From: Candidatus Aceula lacicola
Lineage (GTDB): Bacteria; Omnitrophota; Gorgyraeia; Zapsychrales; Aceulaceae
Assembly (NCBI GenBank): GCA_030765785.1
Contig: JAVCCC010000044.1
Coordinates: 1,417 to 65,416, forward strand
Direction: 5' to 3'
DNA: 64,000 bases
This document shows positions 3,150-47,434 of this stretch, in pieces. The notes under the pieces were generated by a model. That model searched no databases. It saw nothing but the letters and a program-made list of their open reading frames with translations, and had not been told where the DNA came from. Both the position numbers and the translations under genes were made by a program. How positions within the stretch are numbered: the first letter of the stretch is position 1; the number at the start of each line of letters is the position of its first letter.

Positions 3150-4769
3150 TTATACTTTTGGTCCACCCTTTGCGGCAATTTCCTTGCCTTTATCATTTGT
3201 TTCAAATGTTTTAAAATTCTCAACAAACATCTCTGACAGCTCTTTTAATGTTTGATCATAGGCATCCTTGTCAGCCCATGCATTACGTGGATTTAAAACA
3301 TTTTCATCAACATTTTCTAACTTCTTTGGAATTTGTAAATCAAAAATCGGAAAAGCTTCAAACTCTGCATTCTCAATGCTACCGTCTAAAATCGCATCAA
3401 TAATGGCACGTGTTTGTTCAATATCCATTCTTTTCCCAACGCCATATTTTCCGCCAACCCATCCAGTGTTAACCAAATAAGCCTGAGAACCGTGCTTCTC
3501 CATTTTTTGTCCTAAAACTTCCCCGTATTTTGTTGGATGAAGCAATAAAAATGCTTGTCCAAAACAAGATGAAAATGTCGCCTGAGGCTCCTTGACGCCA
3601 AGCTCAGTTCCAGCGACTTTAGCTGTATATCCGCTTAGAAATTGATACATCGTCTGTTCTTTAGTCAATTTTGAAACTGGAGGCAATACTCCATAAGCAT
3701 CGCATGTTAAGAAAATAATTTTCTTTGGATGATCACCAACTGATTCTGGCTTAACAATCTTTTCAATATGTTCAATCGGGTACGAAACACGTGTATTTTG
3801 CGTTTTTGCTGAAGATGAAAAATCCACATTACCCTTTTCATCAACAACAACATTTTCTAAAAGTGCATTTCTTTTAATCGCATTGTAAATTTCAGGCTCT
3901 TTCTTTTGGGAAAGATTAATGCATTTTGCATAACATCCACCCTCAAAATTATAAATACCATGCTTGTCGCACCATCCATGTTCATCATCACCAATCAAAT
4001 CTCTTTTAACATCGGCCGACAATGTTGTTTTTCCAGTTCCAGAAAGACCAAAGAAAAAGGCTGTATCCCCATCTTTTCCAGCGTTTGCCGAACAATGAAA
4101 TGATCCAATGCCATCAAGCGGCAAATAATAATTCATAACCGAAAAAATACCTTTTTTGATTTCTCCACCATACCAAGTGCCAAGAATAACAGCCATCTTT
4201 TCGCCAAGGTTAAACACAGCACCAACTTCTGAACGCATACCATGGCTTTCAAAATCAGGAAATGTCGCCTTGCAGGCATTGAAAATAACAAAATTAGGTT
4301 TAAAGTCCTTTAATTCTTCTTCGGTAGGACGAATAAACATATTTTTAACAAAATGAGCCATCCACGCGACCTCTGTTACCAGCCGAACTGAAAGCCTTGT
4401 TTCTTTAAAAGCACCACAAAAACCATCCATTACATAAAGCTTTTTTCCGCTTAATTGATTGAGACCGGCTTTCTTAAAATCAGCCCAAGCCTCTTGGCTC
4501 ATGCGTCGATTATCTGAACCATTATCCCCATCTTTCCACCAAATATTTTTTGTAGAAGACGGTTCATCAACAATATATTTATCTTTTGGGGAACGGCCAG
4601 TATATTTTCCAGTATCAACCGTAACAGCTCCAAAATTGGTCAATGTTGCTCTCTCGTAACCTTCTAGTGCTGGATTCATTTCATGCTGAAAAAGCTCTTC
4701 ATAAGACAAATTGTAAAAAACTTCTTGTACGTCTGTTATGCCATATTGGGATAGATCGATTTTTGCCAA
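3150..4769 (-). CDS. pckA: Phosphoenolpyruvate carboxykinase (ATP-dependent)
   Basis: 539-aa ORF with PckA-typical N-terminus ([22 protein letters not shown]) and kinase motifs [11 protein letters not shown] and DDEHGW. Confidence 0.93.
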
Positions 4770-7807: not shown

Positions 7808-8602
7808 CTAACTGCTTTGGGATTCTTTGAAATTTCCATGACGATGCGCGGTCTTTTCATCGTCCAAGGGCTTGTATTTTTTAGTTTCGATATCATAAAC
7901 AGAAACAACATTAAGATGAATGAAGTACTTTTTAATATCATCCATTTGAACTCTTGTCAATGGTTTTGTTGCGCAAGGACGAAGCGGCGTATTGATTTGG
8001 ACCTCATCTGGAGCAATCTTTTTTGCTATTTCAGCAATTTGCTCAGCTCTTTCCCTGTTTTCCTCGACGAACATAATTTGCAGGGCCAATTTTCCTTTAA
8101 ATCTTTTTTTAAAAACTAAAAGTCCATCAACAACAGAATCAAAATTAATTGTGTCTACCGGCTTGTTAATATTCAAAAAAGTTTTTTCGTTATTGGCATC
8201 TAATTTTGCTAAAACAAAATCGCAATTCATCAAATCATCTTGCACATCCGCCCGATCGATCAAAGATGAATTTGTAATCACGGCAATCTTTTCTTTTCGT
8301 ACCTTTTTGATCTCGTCAATCATCTCGCCTAAGTTCTTGGCAAGCGTCGGCTCGCCAGATCCAGAAAACGTAATATAATCAATGTTCAAATCCTTGACCA
8401 TCTTAATCTCGTCGACGATCTGATTTGTCAAAATAAATTCTTGTCTTTTAACGCCGAAATCAAGCGTGTCGCCTAACTGACAATACACGCAATTATAATT
8501 ACAAATCTTTTCTGTTCTGGAAATAGGATCTACCCCGAGAGAGAACCCTAAGCGCCAAGAATATACAGGCCCATAAATATATTGGTAGGATTGGTTTTGC
8601 AT
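7808..8602 (-). CDS. Radical SAM domain protein (function unknown)
   Basis: CNYNCVYCQ (CxxxCxxC) motif about 35 aa from the N-terminus. Glycine-rich SAM motif GSGEPTL. Confidence 0.7.
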   Translation of the reverse strand: MQNQSYQYIYGPVYSWRLGFSLGVDPISRTEKICNYNCVYCQLGDTLDFGVKRQEFILTNQIVDEIKMVKDLNIDYITFSGSGEPTLAKNLGEMIDEIKKVRKEKIAVITNSSLIDRADVQDDLMNCDFVLAKLDANNEKTFLNINKPVDTINFDSVVDGLLVFKKRFKGKLALQIMFVEENRERAEQIAEIAKKIAPDEVQINTPLRPCATKPLTRVQMDDIKKYFIHLNVVSVYDIETKKYKPLDDEKTAHRHGNFKESQSS

Positions 8603-8662
8603 TTTAGAATAAGTCTTAGTCTACAATATCAAATTTTTTAGAAAAACAAAGATTAAGAATTT

Positions 8663-9082
8663 TTACGAAAGGGCAATATTTAAAACATCATGCCGACCTA
8701 AAACACCGACTAGCTCGTCCCCATCAAAAATAGGAATTGTATGAACTCTTTTTCTATGCATCGTCGCAATAGCCTTGGCAACTTTATCGGTTTTCTGAAG
8801 AGAAATGATATTGCGACTAGCATGCTCTCCGACGGGTTTCTGAGAAATAACCTGAAGTTCATCGATGCGATGCTTTCCTTCTGAAACAGCTTTGGCCATC
8901 AAGTTAAGAAGGTCTGTGGTTGTAAAAACTCCTACTAATTTTTCTTCACTGTCATTGCTAATGACCAAGATACCGTTAATCTGATAACGAAAAAGAAGAT
9001 GTGCGACATTCCCAATCGAGATATTCTCCTTAATCTTGATGGGATGGTCACACATAATCTCATGAATTTCAATATTATGCAT
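8663..9082 (-). CDS. CBS-domain pair protein
   Basis: 139 aa with two CBS-like repeats (GILVISNDSEEKLVGVFTTTDLL and HTIPIFDGDELVGVLGRHDVL). Confidence 0.7.
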   Translation of the reverse strand: MHNIEIHEIMCDHPIKIKENISIGNVAHLLFRYQINGILVISNDSEEKLVGVFTTTDLLNLMAKAVSEGKHRIDELQVISQKPVGEHASRNIISLQKTDKVAKAIATMHRKRVHTIPIFDGDELVGVLGRHDVLNIALS

Positions 9083-9100
9083 AATTTTCTTTAATTAGAA

Positions 9101-9625
9101 TTATTCTCCAGCAATTTCACCGCTTGGCAAAAATGTTGGCAACGCACGAGCGGAGAGCTCTTTGTCCATCATCAAAATACCATTTCCTTCTTTCCCAATA
9201 TATTTTAGTTTTCCTAAAATATCACTCGGATTCTTTTCTTCTTCAACTTGCTCAGTGACAAACCAATCTAAAAAAATTATAGACGCATTATCGTTGTCTT
9301 TTTGAGCCATGACATAAAGATCATTGATACTTTTTGTAATAAACTTTTCATGCGTCAATGTTTTCTCAAAAATATCTTGAACAGAAGAAAATTTAGAATC
9401 TGGTTTATCAATCGCCTGAAGCTCAACCGCTTCTCCTCGCTCACCAATAAAATTATAAAACTTCATCGCATGAGAAAACTCCTCTGATGCCTGAATCTTC
9501 ATCCAATGAGCAAATCCATCTAAACTTTCACTCTCAAAATATGCAGACATCGCTAAATAAAGATACGCTGAAAATAACTCTCTATTAATCTGATCGTTCA
9601 TCTCTTTAACTAATGTTTTATTCAT
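9101..9625 (-). CDS. ftn: Non-heme ferritin
   Basis: 174 aa with ferritin diiron-site residues (NRELFSAYLYLAMSAYFE, EEFSHAMKFYNF). Confidence 0.88.
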   Translation of the reverse strand: MNKTLVKEMNDQINRELFSAYLYLAMSAYFESESLDGFAHWMKIQASEEFSHAMKFYNFIGERGEAVELQAIDKPDSKFSSVQDIFEKTLTHEKFITKSINDLYVMAQKDNDNASIIFLDWFVTEQVEEEKNPSDILGKLKYIGKEGNGILMMDKELSARALPTFLPSGEIAGE

Positions 9626-9689
9626 TATAAACCTCTCTTCGATTTCTAATAAAATAAGTATACTCTTTTTTAAAAAAATCGCTATTTTT

Positions 9690-10232
9690 TTATCCCAAAA
9701 AGCTTAAATCTGCAGGCTCATAATATTCTTTTGGATGCTTGCAAGATGGACAAGTTTCTGGCGGCTCTTTGCCTTCATGAATAAATCCACATTTGGCACA
9801 TTTCCATTTAATCGACTTTTCTCTCTTGTAAAGGGTGCCATCCTCAACCATCTTTAAAAGCTTTCTATAGCGTGCCTCATGCTCAACTTCAACTTTTGCA
9901 ATCTGCTCAAAAAGACGCGCAGCATCTTCGAAGCCTTCTTCTTTTGCTTCTTTTGAAAAAGTCGGATACATCTCTGTATTCTCGTAATGCTCACCATCAA
10001 TGGCTTCGTTTAAATTCTTAACCGTATCTCCGATCCCATTAAGAAGCTTAAACTCATCTTTGGCATGCTGCATCTCGTTGGCTGCTGATTCTTCAAAAAT
10101 CTTCGCCACATACACATAGCCTTGTTTTTGGGCTATCTTTGCAAAATAAGTATATTTATTTCGCGCTTGCGATTCACCCGAAAAAGCTGCCATCAAATTC
10201 TTTTCCGTTTTTGTTCCTTTGATATCTGCCAT
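9690..10232 (-). CDS. rbr: Rubrerythrin
   Basis: 180 aa. Ferritin-like diiron domain followed by a C-terminal rubredoxin-like CxxC...CxxC (CAKCGFIHEG...CPSC). Confidence 0.93.
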   Translation of the reverse strand: MADIKGTKTEKNLMAAFSGESQARNKYTYFAKIAQKQGYVYVAKIFEESAANEMQHAKDEFKLLNGIGDTVKNLNEAIDGEHYENTEMYPTFSKEAKEEGFEDAARLFEQIAKVEVEHEARYRKLLKMVEDGTLYKREKSIKWKCAKCGFIHEGKEPPETCPSCKHPKEYYEPADLSFLG

Positions 10233-13310: not shown

Positions 13311-13420
13311 TAACCTCCTTTAAATGAGCACCTGACTTATGCAGCCTCTTGTCTTTAAAGGCAAACATCAAGTCAGCCTGTACGAATTAATCCAGTGAGC
13401 TGCGCGTCCTAGCGCAACGA
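13311..13420 (-). promoter_or_regulatory. Copy 2 of the conserved structured 5'-UTR RNA motif (upstream of rubredoxin)
   Basis: RNA sense reads CUGGAUUAAUUCGUAC - hairpin (CUGACUUGAUG ... CAUAAGUCAGG) - GUGCUCAUUUAAAGGAGG - AUG. Confidence 0.6.
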
Positions 13421-13603
13421 ATCTGGAATTCCTTATCTAAAACTTTAAACATATTACCACAAAGAACTTTCCAAAACATACTTTTTATATCTAGGAATGA
13501 TTATTATATAGAAACTATTCCTGTTGTCAAGAAGAAAATAATAGATGCAATTGCCCGGATTGCCCGGCCGGGCAACTCTTACCTTCTCCGTCGATCCAAA
13601 CAA

Positions 13604-13636
13604 AGTTGCCCAAATTGCCCACTGGGCAACTTTTTT
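13604..13636. terminator. Palindromic hairpin terminator downstream of the giant gene (AGTTGCCCA ... TGGGCAACT plus a T-run). Part of a cluster of TTGCCC/GGGCAA repeats at 13551-13636.
   Basis: 9-bp stem with a 10-nt loop. T6 on the plus side and a U-rich tract (UUGUUUGG) on the minus side. Confidence 0.5.
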
Positions 13637-13658
13637 AGATTAAAATTTTTCTTTTAGT

Positions 13659-16600
13659 TTAATGTGCGTAACTTAATTGGAGGTTTTGGTCATCTTCTTC
13701 GACTGCGCCAAGAAACGCAGGAAGATTAACAACCGGTGTGACGTTGATAATAACAGGATAAAGTCCGTTAATCTGAATATTTCTAAAATTAGCATTATTT
13801 AAATTAAATTCAAAACCATCTCCTTTAGATTGAATATCCATATCCATTGTATCAGCTCCGAGATCGATACCCCCAAGTTCTTCTTTCGAATCTTCAAACG
13901 AAATCTCAAGCTGCTTTTCCATCTGACCCTCAACCTCATCTAAGATATCATCAGCCTTTTCACTCGATAAATATAACCACCGATAAACTTGGTTCTCACC
14001 CTCACCGTCTTTTTCTACCGGCGGCAAACGCTCTTCTTCAATAGGAATTGTTTCAAACCCTTGACCCCCTAATGCATCTTCGGCCGCCTGATCTCCAGCT
14101 TCAGCAAAAAATATTGGCTTTTCACTAGAATCTTGTTTTGCCACTTCAATAAGCCGAGCAAGAAGCAAATTTGAAAAACCTTTCTTTTTGTGAAATTCCG
14201 CAACTTCGATAGCATCAAGATGATAAACAAGCTCCATTGTTGTAGCATCTTTCTTAAAAGAAATTTTTCCGTCAGAAGTTACCGGACTTTTAATCTTCCG
14301 GAAAGTTTGCATTGCAACGATTTCTCCATCCTTACCTTCTAACCGAACAACTACCATTCTATAATCATTTAAATTGTCAACAGGTTTATCCCAATAAAAA
14401 TCCTCAACTTGATCAACATTTTTGTCCGCCTCTTTTTTACCTTCTGCTTCACGTTTTCTCGTAGCCACCCACTCGTCCCTAGCTTTCTTTCTTTTTTCAA
14501 GTGCCTGCTCTCTTTCTTCATCATTAGAATTCTCATCAAGATATCCAACTTCTTGAACATAAACCTTTTGCCCTCGAAATTCCATAAAACCATCGATTAT
14601 GAGAGCAGAAGAAATTATGCCACCTTTTGACGCTAAAGCCTCATCAAGCTTTAATTTAATTTCACCGCGCTCTTTGCCGCTCACAACTCTAAAATCGCTC
14701 GGATCTAAAAGCTGCATTTGCTCCATTTTCGTATCATAAATATAAGGCGTCCCATTATAACGAAAATGAATCAAATTTACTCCTTTATTGATAATAACAA
14801 CCTTTTTTTCCTCATTAGGTTTGCCAGTAAAAACAAGACCATCATCTGCAACAATTTTGCTTAAATTAACTCTAGAAGCAATTTCTCTAACCGTAGTTAT
14901 TTTCGAACTCCACTGTTTAAGAAATCTTTTTTGATTTTCAAAGTTAACCGTCATCGTCCGTTGATTAGGCTTTAGTCCCAAAACTTCTTGCGCATAAAAA
15001 ATAGCTTTGGCATAGTTAGCTTCTTCTTCCGATTTTGGTTCTAATATAATAGAAAATTCCTGACCATCAAAAACTTTATCAAAATGCTCTAAAAACAAAG
15101 CAAAAGCCATTTTCCAAGAATGACTTTGTTGTTGACTTAAATCAACAAAAAAATCCTGAATATGAACGACGTTCACTTTCTCACCCTTAGTTTGATCATC
15201 TATTAAATAGGAAACAGCTCCGGCATCATCCGCAAAGGCGACGTCAACTTCATAATGAACAGCAAATAAAACATCTCCATTCTCTGAGTATTCACCAAAA
15301 GGATTACGCACCACAAAAAGATATTCATTCTCAGCGAGAATTCTTGGCCAGGTAGTCTCAAATTTCTCTTCAAAAGTAAGTTTATTGAAAATAGAGGATA
15401 AAATCTCTCGGACCTCTTTTCGGTTCGCTCTTGAATCTAACACCATACCTTCACGTTGTTCGCCTAAATCATCGACAAAAAATACATTAAAAAGTTTTTG
15501 ATTAGAGATATCATGATAAGATTTACGCCCTTTGATAATCAGATTAGCTACAAGAAGCAAGATATCCGTAGACAATTTTTCATCACCATTTTCTTCAATT
15601 TCTCCTGCAAGAAGATTCAAGAATGCAAACATAGAACCAATTGGGTTCCTAAGATCATGGATTATATCTTTTCGCATTAACTTTGATATGTTTAAATCAG
15701 AAACAAATCCAAGATCAGAAATAAAAAGCCCCATATCTGAAATTGTTGCCATAAGATCAACTAGCCTATCCTTTGAAAATTCTTCTTTTACAACTTTAGC
15801 TATTTCAAGAATTAACTTATCTCTTTCTACAATAAGATTCGGACTTGATTCTAATTTAATCTGCTCTTGAATCTTTGCGAAATCTCTTAAATCTTTTAAG
15901 AATAAATTAAACCCAGTTCTTCTTTTTTGTGTATCAGAAAAAAAACTCTTTATAATCAAATACCCCATCATAGCTCCAAACTTGTTAAATTCTCCTTTCT
16001 GAAACACATATTCATCACCAGATCCATTCTCCTCAATATCTTTTCCTGAATTAAGTTCAATATTTAATTTCAAATTTTCAGTATAAAAAAGAACATATTC
16101 TCTAAACAATTTTTCAAAAAGCGAACAATTATTTTTATTTAAAAAAACGGTGCTTTGAATCTCAAGAGATGGTCCAAAAGCCTTGAGAGTCTTCATAGCA
16201 TAAGTATTGCCTTTCCCATCGTTATTATTTATCACACCAATTCCGGAGATACTAGGCAAGAAATCCTGATGAACTAACCCTTGATCGGCAGAAAAATGGT
16301 GAGGAATATAAACTTTATCTAACAAAACTTGATTAGTGTCAATAATCTGGTCTTCTGTTATTGCTTTACCCCCTTTTTCTGGATTATAAAGGTCTCGCAT
16401 AGCTGACAATTTAGAATCTATCTGAAATCCTATAAAAATTTTCTCTCCCGTCCTCTTATCAAAAACAAATTGAAGCTGATATCCAATAATATCTCCAGAA
16501 ACTCCTCCAAAATACTGACTTGCTACATCCATATGATTGATAATATTTCCATTTTGATCTCGGCTAAAAAATACTGTCTCACCTGTTTCTCTATTAACAA

Positions 16601-19355
16601 GCGCCTTGACGCCTAGAATTCTATGATAACGAGGGTTAAAATCTATGCCTTCAATACTAAATATGCGAGCTCGCAAAACAGGATTAAGCCCCGCAAGCGG
16701 TATAACAGAATACATCTCATCAAGGATTTTACCTGTTAAAATAGGAGAAACGCCATCAATAACATCAACTTCTAAATCTCCAGAAACATCTCTTATTTTT
16801 ATTTCTTGCTCTTGTTTCTTTTTAACTCGAACTAATATCGCTATTGCAGACTCTTGACCCTCTGCGACAATCTCATGTTCTAAGAGATTAAGATCCATTC
16901 CTAATCGAATCATCTCGCCGAATAAACCTTTAATAATCTGAATTTTTTCTTGCGCAGCTTCATCTTTCAGAAAACTAAAAACAGCAAAAAGGTTGCCTCC
17001 CGCGTTCACATTGCTATATGCTGAAATAAATTGATTCAAATAAGAGGCCACTTCTTCTTCAGGGTTTATACAATTAATTACGGAAATAACCTTATCGGCG
17101 CCAATCGGATTATTTTCTTCATCTAAAAATCTTCCAGCAAATCTCGTACGATTAAAAACAACATCTGCTCCTGCAAGAGGATCGTCCACAAAAATCTCAA
17201 TATTCTTTTTTTCGGAATCCACAAAAAATTCTTTCAAAAATATACTCGTCATTGGACCAATGCCAAAAATTTTCATTTTTTGGTCTTTTCCTAAAAAAAC
17301 TGTCGACCAAATAGCACTTTGAATCGTTTGAAGATACTTGTTAATACCTTGATAAAAATTATTAAAAAATGTCTTATCAATACTACTAAGAGGAGAAGCC
17401 GTTTGTTTTTTTGTTAACTCATAAACCGTTTTTCCTATTTTTCCCCATTCGAAATGAGTACCGTGTAAATTAGTTCCTAAAAAATCATAGCTGTCTTCAT
17501 CGGATAAAATAGTCTTTTTAATATCAAACTCTTCCATCAAAGCTGGAATATATTTACCCTCTCTTGAGCTAGTCTTAATAATAATCTTAGCTCCTTTTTT
17601 AAACTTTTTCATAACATCAAAATTCTTAATTACGGCAACGAGAGATTCCACTGCTATAGAATTAGGATTTACCAAAAGAATATAGTCTAAAGAATTATCG
17701 GGCAAATAGAGAAGAATATCTGCTTCAGCACGAGCAACAACTAAATTCTCTAAACCTTGCGTTTGCGCAGGAAGTCGTCTTTTTTCAAACTCTTCAGCAT
17801 TGTCTAAATAAAGTCTTGGAGCTCTTTCTTTGTCAATAGCGTATTGATCTGTTGTAATGGACACAATATCTTTCTTTTGATTCAATTCCGCAATCGCCCT
17901 AACAGCTTCAGCATCTCCTCCTCCAAACTCTAACAAAAGCTTTTTACCATTTTTCTTGCTTTCATTAACTAAATTATAAACTTTCCCAATTTCTTCCTTT
18001 GTATTATCAAAAGATAATAAGACATACTCAAGCTTGTCTCGAGAAAAAATCCATCCTTTATCTCTTGCCGCCTCAATTTCACTCCTTGTATTTTCATAAA
18101 TCTTTAAAACATCTCGAACGTACAATGCCATTTTTTCATTCAATTCTTCAGAAATCTTGTTAGCTCTTCCAATAAGCAAGGAAGAATTCTTTAGCGTGCT
18201 TGAAACATGTCGAAGCTTAACAGGAGATGCAGATCCGGTCGCTTGCCTGATATCATTAGTTGGAACAATGGCTTTCTGTGTATTGCCAAGAAAACTCATC
18301 CCTCCTGAAAAATATTTGCGGGGAACATTGCGTTTTTCATACTGATCATATTCAACTTTAACAAAATCACATACACCTTTTTTAAATGCATCAAGATATT
18401 GATTATAAATCTTTTCTCGGATTTCCTTATCCTCAACATCCACACCAGAAATCTTTGCTTGGTTGCTATATTTTTGATTTAAAATCGAACTTTTAAGAGT
18501 ATTCTTAAACCAAGTTGCCAAAATCAAAGAATTATAAATTTGACGAAGGCTTGCAAAATTTTTGCCGCTGTTCACTTCTTTTTCAATTTGAGGCAATACA
18601 ATCTCACGGACAATCTGAGAAGATATATTATTAACTTCTTTTGTTTCCTGAGCGCTATTTATTTTTGTTCCTATTTTTTGATTATCCAAATTATTTTCAA
18701 GGGACAAATAATCTTCTTCAAGCATAACTTTTAAATGACTTTTAACAACAAATGCACGAGGTCCATTTTCATAAACAACCGCTTTTTCTGGAACAATCCA
18801 TACCTTGTTAAAAGTATTAACAGGAATTTGCGTAGTCCCATATTTCTCAAAGGCTTGCTTGTAAATTCGATCCCAAAATCGCTTTCCAAGCTCATCTTCC
18901 GGATAAATAAGCGAAGCTGTAATTTGCTTTAGAATATAATCTTGCGCTAAAAGATCACGCCCCATTTCTGTCTGGCTAAATGCATCTGGAATGATTCGAT
19001 CTTCTTCATACGGAGAAAGATTCACCCAAAGATCATTTTCTGGAATAGTCAGTGATGCCAAGAAATATTTAATAAGTTTTTCGCTTTCCTTCTCAAAGTC
19101 TGCATCACTTAAAGATGTGTCCCCCACATCAACAATAAAATCAAGCTCAAAAGGATTCTCAGGATTAACCCGAACACCTCGAAGCAAAACAGGCGCAAAG
19201 CTCGGAGTAAGCGTAACCATTTCTCCAGGTACAGGCAAAAAACTTAAACTCTGCGCAAAAGCAGCTGAAGGCATAATCATATTGACCAAGAATGCAAAAA
19301 TTACAAACCAGCTTAAGAGATTACAATAAGGTTTTTGTATAAACTTTCTACTCAT
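13659..19355 (-). CDS. Giant (1898 aa) secreted or membrane-anchored multidomain protein of unknown function
   Basis: A single uninterrupted ORF. N-terminal signal peptide MSRKFIQKPYCNLLSWFVIFAFLVNMIMPSAAFA|Q. Around aa 470-560 there is a class I SAM-methyltransferase-like segment (LLLEFGGGDAEAV ... EADILLYLPDNSLDYILLVNP). A second GxGxxG segment follows (KIFGIGPMT). Around aa 1150 there is an isolated histidine-kinase H-box-like segment (IIHDLRNPIGSMFAFLNLL) with no ATPase domain. A GNAT motif-A-like segment (HKKKGFSNLLLARLIEVA) lies near the C-terminus. It has its own promoter region and terminators. Confidence 0.8.
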   Translation of the reverse strand: MSRKFIQKPYCNLLSWFVIFAFLVNMIMPSAAFAQSLSFLPVPGEMVTLTPSFAPVLLRGVRVNPENPFELDFIVDVGDTSLSDADFEKESEKLIKYFLASLTIPENDLWVNLSPYEEDRIIPDAFSQTEMGRDLLAQDYILKQITASLIYPEDELGKRFWDRIYKQAFEKYGTTQIPVNTFNKVWIVPEKAVVYENGPRAFVVKSHLKVMLEEDYLSLENNLDNQKIGTKINSAQETKEVNNISSQIVREIVLPQIEKEVNSGKNFASLRQIYNSLILATWFKNTLKSSILNQKYSNQAKISGVDVEDKEIREKIYNQYLDAFKKGVCDFVKVEYDQYEKRNVPRKYFSGGMSFLGNTQKAIVPTNDIRQATGSASPVKLRHVSSTLKNSSLLIGRANKISEELNEKMALYVRDVLKIYENTRSEIEAARDKGWIFSRDKLEYVLLSFDNTKEEIGKVYNLVNESKKNGKKLLLEFGGGDAEAVRAIAELNQKKDIVSITTDQYAIDKERAPRLYLDNAEEFEKRRLPAQTQGLENLVVARAEADILLYLPDNSLDYILLVNPNSIAVESLVAVIKNFDVMKKFKKGAKIIIKTSSREGKYIPALMEEFDIKKTILSDEDSYDFLGTNLHGTHFEWGKIGKTVYELTKKQTASPLSSIDKTFFNNFYQGINKYLQTIQSAIWSTVFLGKDQKMKIFGIGPMTSIFLKEFFVDSEKKNIEIFVDDPLAGADVVFNRTRFAGRFLDEENNPIGADKVISVINCINPEEEVASYLNQFISAYSNVNAGGNLFAVFSFLKDEAAQEKIQIIKGLFGEMIRLGMDLNLLEHEIVAEGQESAIAILVRVKKKQEQEIKIRDVSGDLEVDVIDGVSPILTGKILDEMYSVIPLAGLNPVLRARIFSIEGIDFNPRYHRILGVKALVNRETGETVFFSRDQNGNIINHMDVASQYFGGVSGDIIGYQLQFVFDKRTGEKIFIGFQIDSKLSAMRDLYNPEKGGKAITEDQIIDTNQVLLDKVYIPHHFSADQGLVHQDFLPSISGIGVINNNDGKGNTYAMKTLKAFGPSLEIQSTVFLNKNNCSLFEKLFREYVLFYTENLKLNIELNSGKDIEENGSGDEYVFQKGEFNKFGAMMGYLIIKSFFSDTQKRRTGFNLFLKDLRDFAKIQEQIKLESSPNLIVERDKLILEIAKVVKEEFSKDRLVDLMATISDMGLFISDLGFVSDLNISKLMRKDIIHDLRNPIGSMFAFLNLLAGEIEENGDEKLSTDILLLVANLIIKGRKSYHDISNQKLFNVFFVDDLGEQREGMVLDSRANRKEVREILSSIFNKLTFEEKFETTWPRILAENEYLFVVRNPFGEYSENGDVLFAVHYEVDVAFADDAGAVSYLIDDQTKGEKVNVVHIQDFFVDLSQQQSHSWKMAFALFLEHFDKVFDGQEFSIILEPKSEEEANYAKAIFYAQEVLGLKPNQRTMTVNFENQKRFLKQWSSKITTVREIASRVNLSKIVADDGLVFTGKPNEEKKVVIINKGVNLIHFRYNGTPYIYDTKMEQMQLLDPSDFRVVSGKERGEIKLKLDEALASKGGIISSALIIDGFMEFRGQKVYVQEVGYLDENSNDEEREQALEKRKKARDEWVATRKREAEGKKEADKNVDQVEDFYWDKPVDNLNDYRMVVVRLEGKDGEIVAMQTFRKIKSPVTSDGKISFKKDATTMELVYHLDAIEVAEFHKKKGFSNLLLARLIEVAKQDSSEKPIFFAEAGDQAAEDALGGQGFETIPIEEERLPPVEKDGEGENQVYRWLYLSSEKADDILDEVEGQMEKQLEISFEDSKEELGGIDLGADTMDMDIQSKGDGFEFNLNNANFRNIQINGLYPVIINVTPVVNLPAFLGAVEEDDQNLQLSYAH

Positions 19356-19416
19356 AAGTAATATTCCTTAAAATATAAATATAAAAATAATCTACCCTAA
19401 CACACCAAGTATATAC

Positions 19417-19540
19417 AATAATATGAAGAAAAAAAGGTCATTTTGACCCTTTCAGGAAAACGTTTTCTTTATTATCCATATTAAGATTAACATTAAGGGG
19501 CGACTTGATTTCTCAAGTCGCCCCAAATATAGCACATCTT
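19417..19540 (-). terminator. Two tandem intrinsic terminators after the DUF2892 gene (GGGGCGACTTGA-gaaa-TCAAGTCGCCCC, then AAAGGGTCA-aaa-TGACCTTTT plus T8)
   Basis: Read directly. They separate the arsR-MMPL operon from the giant gene. Confidence 0.65.
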
Positions 19541-19551
19541 ATTACCTTTTG

Positions 19552-19743
19552 CTATTTAATCCCTATTTTTTTTAAAATCATCATCATCAGGCACCAATTG
19601 GTAAAAGCAGACTGAAGCAAATTAGCTCCAATAAACGCCGTAAACCAAAGCCAGCGTATATCAACCCAAACAGCTAGCGCAAGGCTAAGCAAAATCATAA
19701 AACCTGCAATCCCTCTTAGAATTCTTTCCATTAAAACCTCCAA
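19552..19743 (-). CDS. DUF2892 (YgaP C-terminal-like) small membrane protein
   Basis: 63 aa with two transmembrane segments and GANLLQSAFTNWC, typical of DUF2892. Confidence 0.55.
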   Translation of the reverse strand: MEVLMERILRGIAGFMILLSLALAVWVDIRWLWFTAFIGANLLQSAFTNWCLMMMILKKIGIK

Positions 19744-19748
19744 TCCTT

Positions 19749-21032
19749 TTAAAATGAATAGCGAATGCGCGTATAAATATTCTTATTTCGTTTCATCTGG
19801 CCAAATTCTGTTGTGTCGTCCTCGCCCCAAGGTAAATTCGCACCAAATGTTACTTTCCACTGATCGCTAATATCATAGCTGACAGATGACCTAACGTATC
19901 CATCATCATCTGATGGCGAATAAAATGTAAACAACGAAACCATTACCGTCTGATTCTTAAATAATTTTGTAATCCGGTTGGTTATTAAATGTCGATATTC
20001 ATCCCACCTATAATCATTAGGCAAAAGATTATCGCGATACTCGCTATAATCAAGTCTTTGCTCATACATATACTGAAATCCCACTTTTAAATCATTTCCC
20101 AAGTCTTTAGTATATCCTGCCATCGTTTTAAAAAATGAATTCTCAACTGTTCTAATATTTCCGTCACTATCATCTCGTGAATTAATATAGCCAAATTCAA
20201 TATTTCCAATACCACTTGCAAAGGGCCCTCTCAAACTTGCTCCATAAACATCTACCGGCTCATAATAAAGCTGCTTTAAAGCTTCATTTTTATAGCTCCT
20301 TGGATTCTTGTCAAAACCATGAAAGAAATAAAATGCGCCTTCATTGCTACCAAAATTACGATAAAACCTTAGAGCATATTCATTATTGCTCATCTGAAAT
20401 GGAGGCTTAATAATATCTCGATCTGAATTAACGCCTGTAATGCCTCCTTGAAAGCTATCAAAAAACGACAGGCGATCACCCTTAGCAATTGTGTTTGGTG
20501 TAAAATAAGGAATCACGATAAAATCAATGTTTGCAAACTTTGGATACAAAGATGCTTTAATCGCATCAGATGGTTTCTTTAAATACTCATCATCACGCCC
20601 AGTAAAAAAAGATACATAATCTTTTGAAAACATATCATTAATAAAAAGATAGTCTCCTGTCCCCCACGTCAAAACTTGACGGCCAATCTTTAAATCCATA
20701 AAATCAACAGGAGTCAAAGACAAGTTAAGTTCACGAAGCTCAAAATCTGTTTTACCGCTATAATACTCATCAACAGTAAAATCCCCTCTAAAGCTAAGCG
20801 CCCCACCTTTTTGAGCTAAATAATTATCACCTGAAAAATAATGATTAGCCCTTAGCTGTAGTCGTTGTTCAAAAAGATTATAATTATCTCTTTTTGTATC
20901 ATCATCGCTAAGCTTTACCCCATAATCTGTTTCAATGAATCCATGAATTTGAGGCCAAGCCGCAAAACTTGGTTGTACTAAAATAAAAATAAAAAATAAA
21001 ATAAAAAATATTCTTTTCATTATTGAATCCAT
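19749..21032 (-). CDS. Outer-membrane beta-barrel protein (putative partner of the MMPL/LolA-like system)
   Basis: 427 aa. Signal peptide (FILVQPSFA|AW). Alternating amphipathic strands. C-terminal ...RIRYSF with a terminal Phe. Confidence 0.6.
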   Translation of the reverse strand: MDSIMKRIFFILFFIFILVQPSFAAWPQIHGFIETDYGVKLSDDDTKRDNYNLFEQRLQLRANHYFSGDNYLAQKGGALSFRGDFTVDEYYSGKTDFELRELNLSLTPVDFMDLKIGRQVLTWGTGDYLFINDMFSKDYVSFFTGRDDEYLKKPSDAIKASLYPKFANIDFIVIPYFTPNTIAKGDRLSFFDSFQGGITGVNSDRDIIKPPFQMSNNEYALRFYRNFGSNEGAFYFFHGFDKNPRSYKNEALKQLYYEPVDVYGASLRGPFASGIGNIEFGYINSRDDSDGNIRTVENSFFKTMAGYTKDLGNDLKVGFQYMYEQRLDYSEYRDNLLPNDYRWDEYRHLITNRITKLFKNQTVMVSLFTFYSPSDDDGYVRSSVSYDISDQWKVTFGANLPWGEDDTTEFGQMKRNKNIYTRIRYSF

Positions 21033-43573: not shown

Positions 43574-44287
43574 CTATTGCATCGGAATAAGCCACTCAAT
43601 TTCCTTTAAGAGCTCTTCAATCTTAAAAGGTTTTGTCATATATTTTTGTGCACCCACAACTTTACCAATAAGACGATCTGCATCATCTTGAAGTGCCGTT
43701 AACATAATGATTGGAATGGATTCATCCTTGCTTTCCCGACGAATCTTTCGACAGACTTCAAATCCATTTAACTTTGGCATTTTTAAATCAAGCACAATTA
43801 AATCTGGTGCCTCTGTTAAATATTTTCGATATCCCTCTTCACCGTCAAATGCTACCACCGTCTCATATCCCTCCTTCTTAAAATAAGCTTGCAAAAGAGA
43901 AACCAGATCTTCCTCATCATCAATAATTAAAATTTTCTTTTTTCGATCGGACAAAACAATCATTTGTTCACAAAAGAATTTAAAAAACTTCTTTTCATCT
44001 TCACTGTCTGTTTTAGAAATTTTGACACCAATTCGATATAAATCAAAATCATCAAGTTTTAACGCCCAGATAGCCACCGCTTTCAGCAAAACCTCCTCAC
44101 CATCTTTTACTTGAACAAACAGATCGATTTCTTCTCCATTTTCTATCTTCAGCCCTGAACGAAAACAAATACCTTCTGCGCTTAAGTTAACGGTTGTTGT
44201 TTCAAAGAATTCCTCTGAAATACTAGAAATTTTAAACCGCCCAGAGAAATTAACATCTACTCTCTTATACGCTCTTTTTTCTGTCAT
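43574..44287 (-). CDS. PilZ-REC fusion response regulator (N-terminal PilZ domain, C-terminal receiver, no DNA-binding output)
   Basis: N-terminal KRAYKRVDVNFSGRF ... NLSAEGICF (PilZ RxxxR / DxSxxG-like). C-terminal KKILIIDDE...LIVLDLKMPKLNG receiver. Confidence 0.72.
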   Translation of the reverse strand: MTEKRAYKRVDVNFSGRFKISSISEEFFETTTVNLSAEGICFRSGLKIENGEEIDLFVQVKDGEEVLLKAVAIWALKLDDFDLYRIGVKISKTDSEDEKKFFKFFCEQMIVLSDRKKKILIIDDEEDLVSLLQAYFKKEGYETVVAFDGEEGYRKYLTEAPDLIVLDLKMPKLNGFEVCRKIRRESKDESIPIIMLTALQDDADRLIGKVVGAQKYMTKPFKIEELLKEIEWLIPMQ

Positions 44288-44289
44288 TT

Positions 44290-45207
44290 CTAAATATCTC
44301 CTTCTAACAAGGCATCAATTCGCTCCAAAAGCTGACTCTCACCATCATAAACAAGAATTGAAACTCCTTTTTTGTTTAATATTTCCTTTTTTCTTTTCTC
44401 AAGCCCAAGACCTCCGTAGACAATAACCGGGATATCCTGCGTACGCTCTGCGCCTCTTAAAAGATCAATAAGATTATCAGCGCGCATTTCACAAAGAATC
44501 TCTTTTATAAAAATAACATTTGGCAAATAGCTAATAGCCCCTTCCAAACACTTCGAAGGATTTCGAGCAATGTGAGCAAGAAGTCCATTCTTAAAAAAGA
44601 TTTCTTCAACCTTAGCGCAAAGTTGATCATCATCTTCAGCCAAAAGAATTTTATAAACTTTTTTTCTTTTTTTCACTGAAAGAGAAGCGCCTCCAATGAG
44701 GACACCTCCATCATCACCCTCTTCTTGCTGTCCAATAACGCCTTCAATCATAGATTCAGGCGTACTAACGCTATCCAAAGAATCTTGTTCCTTCAATTTC
44801 TCAATTTTCTCTTTTTGCGCACCATAATCTTTTAAATCTCGCCTTATGACATGTTCGATTTGCTGAACCACCTCGTTGATTTTAAACGGCTTCTCTAAAA
44901 AACCGTCAACCTTAACGACCTCAAAATAATCTCTCATACCAGCGCGTGCGGTTAAAATAATGAACGGAATATTTTTTCCAAAATCTGTTTCTTTTAATTC
45001 TTTTAAAAAATCATTCCCACTTTTCTTTGGCATAAGAACATCCGATAAAATAACATCCGGACGGACTTTCTCAGTCAACGCAAGGGCTTCCTCACCATCA
45101 GCTGCCTGGTAAACTTCATATCCTTGTTTCTCGAGTTCTTCAGCAATTAAAATCCGCAGATCTTTTTCATCCTCAGCTAAAAGAACTTTAATCTTTTTCA
45201 TACTCAT
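44290..45207 (-). CDS. Tandem-receiver protein (canonical REC1, degenerate REC2, no output domain)
   Basis: REC1 has VLLAEDEKDL...DVILSDVLMPKKSG. REC2 has ILLAEDDDQL... Confidence 0.72.
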   Translation of the reverse strand: MSMKKIKVLLAEDEKDLRILIAEELEKQGYEVYQAADGEEALALTEKVRPDVILSDVLMPKKSGNDFLKELKETDFGKNIPFIILTARAGMRDYFEVVKVDGFLEKPFKINEVVQQIEHVIRRDLKDYGAQKEKIEKLKEQDSLDSVSTPESMIEGVIGQQEEGDDGGVLIGGASLSVKKRKKVYKILLAEDDDQLCAKVEEIFFKNGLLAHIARNPSKCLEGAISYLPNVIFIKEILCEMRADNLIDLLRGAERTQDIPVIVYGGLGLEKRKKEILNKKGVSILVYDGESQLLERIDALLEGDI

Positions 45208-45209
45208 AT

Positions 45210-45680
45210 TTAGAAATCTCCTAAAATTTTCCGAACAAGCCCTAAAAGAGTTTCTCTTGAAAAAGGCTTTTCTAAATACATTATACTCTCAAAATTTTGC
45301 GCTTTCTTAAAAATTTCTCCAACCATACGTTTTGGCGTTGGCATCTTCTTTCGATCAATCCTATCCTTAGAAATCCCCTGCTTGTCCAACTCTTCTTTTT
45401 CTAAATAAGTAGCTTCCCCTAACCCGCTTGTAATAACAACTGGAATTTTATCCGTTTCGGAATTTTGCCTTAAAAGGCGGAGAACTTCATCACCCCTCAT
45501 TTTAGGCATAACGTAATCTAAAAAAATTAAATCCGGCTTTTTTTCTAAAACAATATAATACCCTTCTTCGCCATCTAATGCGGTATCAACTTCAAAGGGT
45601 CCCATGCCTTCTAAAAGTGATTTCATAAGAAAACAAAAATCTTTTTCGTCATCAATAATAACAATTTTCTTCTTTTCCAT
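45210..45680 (-). CDS. Single-domain response regulator (CheY-like)
   Basis: 156 aa with IVIIDDEKDF...LIFLDYVMPKMRG. Confidence 0.8.
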   Translation of the reverse strand: MEKKKIVIIDDEKDFCFLMKSLLEGMGPFEVDTALDGEEGYYIVLEKKPDLIFLDYVMPKMRGDEVLRLLRQNSETDKIPVVITSGLGEATYLEKEELDKQGISKDRIDRKKMPTPKRMVGEIFKKAQNFESIMYLEKPFSRETLLGLVRKILGDF

Positions 45681-45694
45681 AAAAATCCTTTCTT

Positions 45695-47407
45695 TTACTT
45701 AGCAGAAAAAGGAATACGAATAATAAATTTAGTGCCCTTGCCTTCTTCGCTTTCCACTTCGATCGTTGCATGATGTTTCTCTAAAATCATATAAACGGTG
45801 CTCAAACCCAATCCGGTTCCTCTTCCTTGTTCTTTTGTTGTATAAAAAGGTTCGAAAATTCTAGACATCACTTCTTTGGACATGCCTGGACCCGTATCTG
45901 ATACCTCTACAACAATCTGATCTTTTTGCGTTTTATCTTTCTCTAAACATGTCTTAACAAAAATGTCTCCTGCGCCCTCTATGGCGTCTCCAGCATTAAG
46001 CAAAAGATTAAAAAAAACCTGTTCCATTAGAATCTTATCCGCAAAAATTATTATTTCTTGGATAAAACACTCCCAATGAAAAATAATATTTTTAGATTTA
46101 AACACATTTTTCGCTAATAAAGTTGCGTTATTAAGAATTTCTTCAACAGAAACTTCTTCCATCTTAATGTCCGAAGAACGAGAAAAATTTAGAAGCTGCA
46201 CAACAACACTATTTGCACGCTCAGCCGCCTCTTTAATCATTTTTAAATGACTCCTTGTCTTCTCATCGGATTCAGCGATCTCATGATCTAGAGACCCTAC
46301 GCTAAGCAAAATAATAGCCAGAGGATTTTTAACTTCATGAGCCACTCCTGCAGACAACTGCCCAACGGCTGCCATTTTCTCTGATTGTAAAATCTGACCC
46401 TGCGCTTCCTTCAGTTGCTTTTGCTGCTTAAAAAACTTTGATATTAATCGCGCAATAACACCAAACTCTGCGCCACTTTTTTCTAAATCCTCAAGCTGAT
46501 CAACTTCTTCACAAGACAATGCTTTCGAAATTTTTCCTAAAGGCTTTGAAATCCAAACAAATCCAAACAAAAAGAAAAATATCAAAAAAGAAATTATAGA
46601 TACGATAAAATAATAAAAATTCTTTTGTTTTGATCTTAAAAGATAGTCTGCCAAAGGATACTGTGTTCGAAAAACAAGAGATCCAACAGCCTCTCCATCA
46701 AATCCATACAACTCTCTATAAATATAAAAAACATCTTCCAAGTCACGATGGAGCTCCTTAACGTCCTCATCTTTATACGATAACCGATCCATTAAAAAAA
46801 CATTTCCCTCCATTAGCTGAGAAAAATTTTCAACAAATTCATTATTTAAAGCACGCGCAACCAAAAAATATCCTCTCGGAGGAGTCTTTCGATCAACATC
46901 AGAGGTAGGATGAATTGTTGCCCCTCGAACCTCTAGAGGTCCCTCTTTAGACCATACAAAAAAATCGACAAAATGTTCACTATACAATTTTTCTTTAATT
47001 TTATTAAAAGAAATAGGAAATTCCTTTAAAAAACCCTCTTCCTCCTCCTGAATAGAATAAATAAGCCTTGAGTCTAAATCGTAAACCCAAGCAAACTGAA
47101 TATCATAAGTTTCCATAGCATTACCGATATTTTCTTCAGCCCATTCTTCAGCCTCTTCATCTGTTTGATTTTTTCGCTCTATAAGATCAACCATTTCATC
47201 CCAATAAGTATAATCAAAAGAAATTGCATCTAAAGAGTTTCCTTTAAGATTAAAAATCTCATTAAAAAAGTACGTTGTGTGTTCTTTGCGATCTTCCAGA
47301 ATAGTAAAAAACTCTTTTTGCTGAATTTGATCGATAAAAAATAATCCCACCGAAAAAAATACAATTGTTAACAATAAAAACAAAACAAGTTTTACTTGTA
47401 TCTTCAT
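45695..47407 (-). CDS. Sensor histidine kinase (two transmembrane segments, extracytoplasmic sensor domain, HisKA, HATPase)
   Basis: H-box HEVKNPLAII. N, G1 and G2 boxes (LLLNAGDA, DTGPGM, GTGLGLS). Confidence 0.88.
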   Translation of the reverse strand: MKIQVKLVLFLLLTIVFFSVGLFFIDQIQQKEFFTILEDRKEHTTYFFNEIFNLKGNSLDAISFDYTYWDEMVDLIERKNQTDEEAEEWAEENIGNAMETYDIQFAWVYDLDSRLIYSIQEEEEGFLKEFPISFNKIKEKLYSEHFVDFFVWSKEGPLEVRGATIHPTSDVDRKTPPRGYFLVARALNNEFVENFSQLMEGNVFLMDRLSYKDEDVKELHRDLEDVFYIYRELYGFDGEAVGSLVFRTQYPLADYLLRSKQKNFYYFIVSIISFLIFFFLFGFVWISKPLGKISKALSCEEVDQLEDLEKSGAEFGVIARLISKFFKQQKQLKEAQGQILQSEKMAAVGQLSAGVAHEVKNPLAIILLSVGSLDHEIAESDEKTRSHLKMIKEAAERANSVVVQLLNFSRSSDIKMEEVSVEEILNNATLLAKNVFKSKNIIFHWECFIQEIIIFADKILMEQVFFNLLLNAGDAIEGAGDIFVKTCLEKDKTQKDQIVVEVSDTGPGMSKEVMSRIFEPFYTTKEQGRGTGLGLSTVYMILEKHHATIEVESEEGKGTKFIIRIPFSAK

Positions 47408-47434
47408 ATTTTCTCCTATAACAAAAACATTTGG

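Follow-up and report, generated by a model that had tools for sequence, protein, structure and literature searches.

The gene and its two constant ends

We analysed a window of 64,000 nucleotides (the whole stretch of DNA under study, on contig JAVCCC010000044.1) from Candidatus Aceula lacicola, a member of the Omnitrophota, and within it one large gene whose product carries two conserved ends around a variable middle. The gene (13659..19355, minus strand) is a single ATG-started open reading frame (ORF) encoding 1898 amino acids (aa). It is the longest of the window, the runner-up encoding 1230 aa, in line with the original prediction of a single real ORF. An uninterrupted run of 1898 codons at ~35% GC cannot have arisen by chance; the ORF is thus a real gene, and it stands alone between unrelated operons. 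Its product has exactly the sequence of hypothetical protein P9M12_04840 from the Candidatus Aceula lacicola metagenome-assembled genome (MAG), whose source is Ace Lake (PMC8542988). The features of the locus are collected in Table 1.

The protein had been described as having no recognisable overall family, a description that we revise: its relatives number in the thousands and are defined by their two ends, though these ends are unmodelled in databases. At least 3775 protein clusters match it at E≤0.001 (8000 candidates scored), covering only 16–33% of the query, from its start, and in BLAST the similarity was limited to aa 1–355 and aa ~1825–1898 in 105 of 119 relatives. The first end (N-module, aa 35–352) is 50–65% identical to that of the 119 relatives, with many invariant columns and the strongest conservation from LPxPGxMV (aa 40) through IPRKYFSGG (aa 352). 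The second (C-module), found in 105 of the 119, follows the consensus GGIDLNP..LDLQI.G.G....P......N..IDGF.PVIINITPVTNLPLLLG and then an acidic tail; at least 90% of C-modules retain G1828, G1829, I1830, P1867 and P1874. Members of this family, which we call the bookend family, carry an N-module of ~320 aa right after the signal peptide, ending in IPRKYFSGG, and GGIDLNP ... PVIINITPVTNLP.LLG in the last ~70 aa; the 1898-aa protein has both, the latter at aa 1827–1898. The relatives are 1057–3121 aa long (median 1894), and the part between the ends, the cargo, measures 700 to 2700 aa across the family.

No model in Pfam or NCBIfam matches the N-module or the C-module. A profile of the N-module returned nothing from PDB sequences and Pfam, and no solved structure was matched; its AlphaFold model, of moderate quality (predicted local distance difference test, pLDDT, 72; predicted template modelling score, pTM, 0.74), shows three beta-hairpins and long helices. 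Among C-terminal sorting or secretion tags (the C-terminal domain, CTD, of the type IX secretion system, T9SS; PEP-CTERM; LPXTG; GlyGly-CTERM), NCBIfam gave no match at E≤1 and Pfam none on the C-module. The C-module also lacks the layout of a sorting tag (motif, transmembrane helix, basic tail): its tail is acidic and its hydrophobic stretch is proline-rich. Our literature searches turned up no account of the end modules, including in the passages on N-termini, C-termini and signal peptides of PMC10066038, bioRxiv 10.1101/2023.11.21.568195 and 10.64898/2026.06.07.730766. The 1898-aa protein represents a large unannotated family, unmodelled in databases.

When each GTDB species was scanned through a single genome, at least 596 pattern matches were obtained, of which at least 587 were confirmed; the details of distribution given here come from the best 78 loci. 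Nearly all of these lie in MAGs titled Omnitrophota or Omnitrophica, or in ENA bins labelled 'uncultured Planctomycetales' (labels only, the phylum being unconfirmed), and among the loci examined the family is essentially confined to Omnitrophota. Several of the 78 loci occur per genome, and at 20 of them at least two members stand side by side on the same strand; the window holds no second member. A phage origin of the family was considered and rejected, with only 3 matches among 2.9 million viral contigs.

Table 1. Features of the gene for the 1898-aa protein and its borders (window positions; the limits of the cargo modules are approximate)
Feature	Position	Strand	Residues	Remarks
Sec-type signal peptide	19254..19355	-	aa 1-34	predicted cleavage between AFA and Q
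Constant N-module	18300..19253	-	aa 35-352 (~320 aa)	ends IPRKYFSGG; family-defining
Cargo module 1	17436..18038	-	aa ~440-640	predicted diverged class I S-adenosylmethionine (SAM)-methyltransferase fold, TrmB/NpmA type
Cargo module 2	16746..17288	-	aa ~690-870	second Rossmann/methyltransferase-like alpha/beta domain; IFGIGPMTS ... IFVDD ... ADKVISVINC
Cargo module 3	16299..16631	-	aa ~909-1019	beta-rich (GVKALVN..TGE.VFFS ... GYQLQ); pLDDT 71-90
Cargo module 4	15504..16136	-	aa ~1074-1284	long helical bundle with H-box-like helix; pLDDT 65-85
H-box-like helix	15609-15665	-	aa 1231-1249	within long helical hairpin of the model
Cargo module 5	14979..15461	-	aa ~1299-1459	alpha/beta domain, possibly degenerate GNAT fold; pLDDT 55-79
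Cargo module 6	13986..14399	-	aa ~1653-1790	GNAT-like segment, motif-A-like HKKKGFS
Constant C-module	13662..13877	-	aa 1827-1898 (~70 aa)	GGIDLxx ... INGLYPVIINVTPVVNLPAFLG and acidic tail
Two hairpins ending the upstream MMPL/LolA-like/barrel/YgaP-like unit	19431..19524	-		positions 19524-19497 and 19453-19431; T-run after the second
Palindromic hairpin directly past the stop codon	13615..13629			weak terminator: T-run poor on the gene's own strand

Turnover and content of the cargo

We compared the locus with those of two relatives, P0002 (locus L080) and P0004 (Aceula meridiana, locus L079), where the gene order is identical to that of the window (MMPL, LolA-like, 423-aa barrel, YgaP-like, target gene, rubredoxin, flavodiiron protein and onward). 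Compared with the window, proteins are 50–91% identical for the flanking genes (most 66–91%), 82–84% for the N-module and 62–71% for the C-module. The cargo is 30% identical to that of P0002 over aa 665–1586, and 28% identical to that of P0004 over aa 742–1015 only, the rest being unalignable. At the DNA level, an identity of ~80% runs through the flanks and the N-module, ends at window position 18250 and returns at 13886. A single DNA match (259 bp, 68%) falls between these points, and module 3 is the only cargo stretch with residual DNA similarity to the orthologous locus. Non-synonymous divergence (dN, Nei-Gojobori) was 0.07–0.08 for the N-module, 0.14–0.23 for the C-module, 0.08–0.20 for the flavodiiron gene and 0.73 for the cargo, which thus changes ~10-fold faster than the ends at this orthologous locus; synonymous divergence (dS) was saturated throughout, making dN/dS uninformative. 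A looser positional counterpart, L010, has two REC domains as its cargo.

In A. meridiana the DNA of the N-module and ~110 nt upstream of it (18301–19465 versus L079 9899–11061) is 81.6% identical to the window, and the flanking genes are 67–73% identical, with dS of ~1.0 for the N-module stretch and 2–3.6 for the flanking genes. Gene conversion or a recent exchange of the constant end could account for this, though uncertainly, given the saturation of dS.

The cargo of the relatives is diverse. Pfam identified metabolic enzymes (enolase; glucose-6-phosphate isomerase, PGI; hexokinase; ROK kinase; phosphoglucomutase, PGM; GAPDH with acyl-CoA dehydrogenase, ACAD; isocitrate lyase, malate synthase and phosphoenolpyruvate carboxykinase, PEPCK), signalling domains (response-regulator receivers, REC; HATPase; Ser/Thr kinase with PP2C) and others, among them UbiB kinase with M48 peptidase, HEAT repeats, NUDIX, phosphoribosyltransferase, GNAT and several types of methyltransferase. 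In the enolase cargo of P0009 the catalytic and metal-binding residues are kept. Constant ends bracketing a fast-changing middle of enzyme-like domains that are normally intracellular suggest deliberate enzyme export. As a separate observation, the P0009 enolase looks permuted or split, its barrel domain (aa 741–1021) lying ahead of a brief stretch that matches the N-terminal domain of enolase (aa 1225–1259).

This arrangement recalls polymorphic toxins (Zhang et al. 2012, PMC3482391), in which constant trafficking parts are combined with recombining variable enzymatic parts, frequently in arrays, the variable toxin part being C-terminal and followed by an immunity gene. A toxin used against competing bacteria, its ends constant for trafficking and its middle toxic, would agree with a cargo that varies or is exchanged at one locus, with the tandem arrays of family members and with the Foldseek likeness to GNAT toxins such as AtaT described below. 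We nevertheless find such a role very unlikely. In all three syntenic genomes the gene is followed not by a small immunity-type gene but by rubredoxin with its own promoter, the cargo of the family consists mostly of metabolic and signalling enzymes rather than nucleases or deaminases, and the variable part is internal and capped by the C-module.

We then turned to the cargo of the 1898-aa protein. The original prediction had proposed a methyltransferase-like core around aa 470–560, containing LLLEFGGGDAEAV (aa 473–485) and EADILLYLPDNSLDYILLVNP (aa 544–564), and a family profile bears this out. The methyltransferase-like module of aa ~440–640 recurs in nine other members, right after the N-module in some relatives and right before the C-module in others. 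The profile of the 10 family segments matches TrmB (1yzh, E 2.7e-4) and a KamB/NpmA-type 16S rRNA methyltransferase (3mq2, E 6e-4). At E≤0.1, Pfam Methyltransf_4 is found in 8 of the 10 segments and NpmA in 7, the latter scoring ~25–26 bits in other family members (cut-off 60 bits); across the two models the best E of other members is ~1e-6. Motif I and the Asp ending strand 2 are conserved in the alignment of the 10 segments, with G85 and D108 invariant, and the query has both motif I (EFGGGDAEAV) and an acidic end of strand 2 (ITTD). The module thus resembles TrmB and the NpmA-KamB enzymes in motif I, in the acidic residue after strand 2 and in its overall profile; unlike them, it is embedded in an exported multidomain protein, and the query segment matches neither Pfam model, scoring instead for Spermine_synth (aa 461–511, E 0.07; 18.4 bits, below the cut-off of 22.9). 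Judging from the profile, aa 440–640 form a real, diverged class I methyltransferase fold.

For the remainder of the cargo we used an AlphaFold model of aa 700–1898, which is poor overall (pLDDT 56) and has four confident blocks. A Foldseek search of the PDB with this model, in which the aligned query residues are unreported, gave no match at E≤0.001. The second GxGxxG segment of the original prediction (KIFGIGPMTSIFL, aa 695–707, with IFVDDP at aa 721–726) adjoins a confident alpha/beta region (aa 749–869, pLDDT 76–92), the N-terminal half of module 2 being modelled with low confidence. The top Foldseek matches are class I methyltransferases (PNMT, NNMT, NTMT1, Trm5b), with probabilities of 0.95–0.99 but E values of only 0.025–0.08; a local phmmer comparison also ties module 2 to the methyltransferase region of P0004. 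The beta-rich module 3 is common to four relatives only (P0002, P0003, P0004 and P0005).

Module 4 contains the histidine-kinase H-box-like helix that had been placed at aa ~1150 and is found at aa 1231–1249. Its IIHDLRNP fits an H-box, although HisKA (aa 1230–1254, E 0.15) scores 12.6 bits against a cut-off of 26.9. The helix is conserved in two relatives that share the cargo, the His and Asp of the H-box being invariant in an alignment of three sequences only. As had been noted, no ATPase accompanies it: HATPase_c was not detected in the 1898-aa protein. P0003, which shares the cargo over aa 660–1588, has a weak HATPase_c match at aa 1885–1975 (E 0.003; 18.4 bits against the 26.4-bit Pfam cut-off).

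Of the last two modules, module 6 is GNAT-like and module 5 possibly so. Foldseek also returned the GNAT toxin AtaT (7chd_B, 7byy_A; probability 0.96–0.99, E 0.06). At the motif A position of module 5 the query reads QQQSHSW, and relatives sharing the cargo read R-K-Q-G-Y-S-G or K-Q-T-G-Y-T. The GNAT segment proposed near the C-terminus (HKKKGFSNLLLARLIEVA, aa 1722–1739) lies in module 6, whose score stays just under the Pfam cut-off (Acetyltransf_1, aa 1653–1749, E 0.0019; 18.9 bits versus 20.7). Where Q/R-x-x-G-x-G/A is expected for motif A, it has only the similar K-K-K-G-F-S, which ends in Ser. In the L009 protein, a segment overlapping a borderline Acetyltransf_1 match (20.7 bits, equal to the cut-off) shares 28% identity with module 6; module 6 is modelled poorly (pLDDT 25–48), and a PDB sequence search with the GNAT-like segment gave no match. 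The original domain guesses are borne out in part, and the best explanation of the cargo is a pair of diverged methyltransferase folds together with a beta-rich module, a helical bundle bearing an H-box and one or two GNAT-like folds.

Searches of NCBIfam and of PDB sequences with the full 1898-aa protein found nothing. The cargo alone (aa 401–1821) returned only the query from a word-indexed protein database; a profile of three cargo sequences returned nothing there and nothing significant from PDB sequences. An exhaustive HMMER profile search with aa 660–1590 through 1.84 billion representatives recovered only P0002–P0005. By sequence, the cargo outside the methyltransferase-like module of aa ~440–640 therefore appears essentially orphan.

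Folds of this kind might be displayed for their shape rather than their chemistry, as binding or structural modules of a surface coat or adhesin, catalytically dead or 'moonlighting'. Every enzyme-like module of this protein lies below curated thresholds and one GNAT-like module is without motif A. Such a role would also be compatible with the export signatures described below and with the rapid divergence typical of surface proteins, and giant Omnitrophota proteins are proposed as coat or adhesins in PMC10066038. However, the cofactor-binding motifs of module 1 are retained across 10 members, the catalytic residues are intact in one enolase cargo, and adhesin-type repeats and tandem repeats were not found. 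We regard a coat or adhesin as rather unlikely.

Predicted export and the proposed site of action

The N-terminus of the protein, MSRKFIQKPYCNLLSWFVIFAFLVNMIMPSAAFA followed by QS, has a basic n-region, a hydrophobic core, Pro at position −6 and AFA/Q at aa 32–35 (the slash marks the predicted cut). The Sec-type signal peptide that had been proposed here is found with the same layout in 101 of 111 relatives, with a mean net charge of +3.3 and a hydrophobic core of 15–18 residues. Across these relatives Pro stands at −6, followed by A-[YF]-A and then Gln; Ala occupies −1 in 72 of the 101 and Gln +1 in 79. The sole strong hydrophobic segment of the 1898-aa protein is aa 10–31, and no internal transmembrane segment was found in it.

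Exported proteins are known to avoid cysteine. The 1898-aa protein has 4 Cys (0.21%), compared with 1.43% in the 42 other ORFs of the window (≥150 aa); the Poisson probability of so few is 4e-8. The family median is 0.09% (maximum 0.35%) and that of the cargo alone 0.07%, which amounts to a family-wide depletion of ~15-fold, cargo included. Cys is comparably scarce in the window's barrel, LolA-like and TonB-receptor proteins. We infer that the avoidance has the same meaning in this family, and together the conserved A-x-A/Q site and the Cys depletion support genuine export. Export of the family by the Sec pathway is predicted with fairly high confidence.

The exported cargo creates a paradox of cofactors, which the original prediction had pointed out and which is real and family-wide: enzymes that use SAM or acetyl-CoA would be placed outside the cytoplasm, where neither would be at hand. 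One way around it is a scaffold whose N-terminal segment stays uncleaved and tethers it to the membrane; its cargo would lie on the cytoplasmic side, and the ends would arrange the enzymes along the membrane. The cargo domains do require cytoplasmic cofactors (SAM, acetyl-CoA, ATP), and bioRxiv 10.64898/2026.06.07.730766 favours a placement of this kind for long proteins that have transmembrane helices only. Yet the positive n-region predicts an N-in, C-out orientation, Pro at −6 and A-x-A/Q are conserved, and there is no second transmembrane segment to bring the chain back to the cytoplasm. The ~15-fold depletion of Cys, which extends to the cargo, groups the family with the envelope proteins encoded in the window and apart from the cytoplasmic proteins. 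These features disfavour the inverted, cytoplasm-facing anchor that had been suggested, and we consider a scaffold improbable.

We favour instead, with chances that seem to us evenly balanced, a Sec-exported modular protein in which constant ends for export or delivery carry a variable payload that acts outside the cytoplasm of the producer. A cleavable signal peptide would take the protein through Sec, the two constant ends would supply export, anchoring or delivery, and the cargo would be the working payload, most likely at work on the cell surface or within a host or prey cell, SAM and acetyl-CoA being available there. Our confidence in the architecture of the family is high, and in any specific site of action moderate to low. 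What the data show directly is this architecture, its abundance, the export signature and the turnover of the payload; the roles of the ends and the place where the cargo acts are inferred. The payload reading would fit the host-dependent lifestyle proposed for Omnitrophota and what their giant 'Archaeovorin' proteins contain. In PMC10066038, bioRxiv 10.1101/2023.11.21.568195 and 10.64898/2026.06.07.730766, Omnitrophota are proposed to be host-dependent and possibly predatory, with giant proteins that have similar domains and pose the same topological paradox. The latter two also describe long Omnitrophota proteins that join signal peptides or transmembrane helices with methyltransferase, HATPase and GNAT domains and discuss them as extracellular and host-directed. 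More tentatively, ultra-small, host-dependent Omnitrophota may have an unrecognised, phylum-wide system for export and delivery, or for surface display, with the N- and C-modules as its constant parts. Through it dozens of cytoplasmic-type enzymes and signalling domains would be sent to the host cytoplasm or the cell-cell junction, the payload being replaced over evolution at fixed loci.

The Archaeovorin-type and other very long Omnitrophota proteins (West-Roberts et al., bioRxiv 10.1101/2023.11.21.568195; 10.64898/2026.06.07.730766) are the closest comparison. They share with the bookend family its phylum, the joining of a signal peptide or membrane targeting to domains of the methyltransferase, GNAT, HATPase, NUDIX, HEAT and sugar-metabolism kinds, and the resulting cofactor paradox; most of the length of each is unannotated. 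The giants differ in having 10,000 to 147,000 aa, usually many transmembrane helices and mutually dissimilar sequences, whereas the bookend proteins have 1,000 to 3,100 aa, no internal transmembrane helix and two conserved end modules of which our searches of both papers found no mention. An Archaeovorin would have more than ~10,000 aa, many transmembrane helices and glycosyltransferase, glycoside hydrolase or peptidase domains; the protein studied here has 1898 aa and a signal peptide only, and no such domains were found in it. We place it, as a new variant, among the exported multi-enzyme proteins that are emerging as a class in Omnitrophota.

In MARTX toxins, conserved N- and C-terminal regions bracket central effector domains that vary between strains, and the ends deliver them; these toxins carry no Sec signal peptide and exit through type I secretion. 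The likeness, constant ends around a variable central payload, is one of analogy: there is no relation in sequence or fold, and the 1898-aa protein is without RTX repeats and a cysteine-protease domain but has a cleavable signal peptide. The T9SS of Bacteroidota handles diverse cargo that has a Sec signal peptide and a conserved C-terminal tag. The bookend proteins share with this cargo the signal peptide, a conserved C-terminal element comparable to its 70–100-aa tag, the very different contents and the many copies per genome; unlike it, they match no CTD model in NCBIfam or Pfam and have a large constant N-module. MARTX, polymorphic toxins and T9SS cargo would thus be the nearest functional analogies, and analogies only, since the protein lacks what defines membership in each.

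Several points weigh against the payload reading. None of the enzyme-like domains of this protein reaches a curated Pfam threshold and one GNAT-like module has lost motif A, so the cargo could be non-catalytic. The divergence of the cargo could reflect relaxed constraint instead of selection for novelty, and the protein is not hypervariable within its population, since 17 contigs carry an identical 1898-aa sequence. The role of the N-module is a guess, as its fold is unrecognised, and the AlphaFold model of the C-module is of low confidence (pLDDT 33–62) despite 30 homologous fragments in the alignment. The window encodes no secretion system, and we found no conserved partner gene beside family members with the window genes alone as probes.

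Omnitrophota are widespread, uncultured and thought to be host-dependent, and attention has so far gone to giant proteins that are hard to study. The bookend family offers tractable relatives the size of a gene (1–3 thousand aa) with a recognisable handle, the two conserved end modules, by which the exported repertoire of any genome can be listed. Through it, the paradox of cytoplasmic enzymes behind a signal peptide becomes a testable question of localisation. If the ends are a device for delivery or display, they would amount to a new logic of protein export and give an effector catalogue for the whole phylum.

Transcription signals and neighbouring genes

The terminators that had been proposed on both sides of the gene stand in part: two hairpins lie upstream, the second with a T-run, and the downstream hairpin is weak on the strand of the gene. 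Upstream of the gene we saw no convincing promoter. A perfect TTGACA-16-TATAAT promoter beyond the 3' hairpin (13530–13503) serves the rubredoxin operon. Given the hairpins and the promoter of that operon, the monocistronic label of the gene is reasonable. The operon downstream is one of oxidative stress, in the order rubredoxin, flavodiiron protein, PNPOx, Fur, FNR-like protein, rubrerythrin, ferritin and CBS protein.

Upstream lies the MMPL/LolA-like/barrel operon, and a functional link between it and the gene had been suggested, which would make the protein an envelope enzyme partnering lipid export. The adjacency is retained in L079 and L080, and loosely in L010, with ~3.4 kb of other genes between. 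However, L079 and L080 are syntenic with the window throughout a 17-kb region that includes the oxidative-stress operon downstream, so that adjacency there is uninformative, and L010 has unrelated cargo, its two REC domains. The operon is absent at 77 of the 78 other family loci, and hairpins part the two transcription units. We therefore hold a partnership with this operon to be scarcely probable.

Between the 427-aa barrel gene and the gene of interest we noted an unlisted 59-aa ORF (19732–19553) for a YgaP-like transmembrane protein, present at the same position in L079, L080 and L081 and probably also in L010. In L079 the YgaP-like gene and the target are separated by an inserted two-gene block (7936–10000; a pyridoxal-phosphate (PLP) enzyme of Cys/Met metabolism and PspC), beside which the 3' end of YgaP and the hairpin region occur a second time (window 19479–19676, corresponding to L079 9607–9806). 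On the other side, paired GGGCAA/TTGCCC hairpins stand at 13493–13640, between the stop codon and the sigma-70-type promoter, and the promoter stretch of the rubredoxin operon is 90% identical in A. meridiana. A stretch of 69 bp within the 5' leader of rubredoxin (13320–13388) is 81% identical to the MMPL/LolA-like spacer of L080 (1909–1974) and may be a small repeated intergenic element; between 13000 and 20000 there were no tandem repeats and no Rfam matches.

The wider context is that of an ordinary chromosome, with a stand-alone PEPCK (3150–4769), NrdD and its activase, HypF, HypE, NiFe hydrogenase, FeoB and a TonB-dependent receptor. The large ORFs (≥400 aa) are all on the minus strand, as is every gene examined, and the GC skew is −0.15 to −0.33 window-wide. 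A signalling cluster at 43574–51127 comprises a PilZ-REC protein, two more REC proteins, a CHASE4 histidine kinase and the 1230-aa Cache-HAMP-PAS histidine kinase. Apparent conserved neighbours of family loci in this cluster were rejected as generic matches to REC and histidine-kinase domains, without synteny. Two further ORFs, of 501 aa (61898–63403) and 427 aa (19749–21032, the barrel), are nearly free of Cys (0.2% and 0%, respectively); they are without a Pfam match (at E≤1e-5 and E≤0.01, respectively) and are probably envelope proteins.

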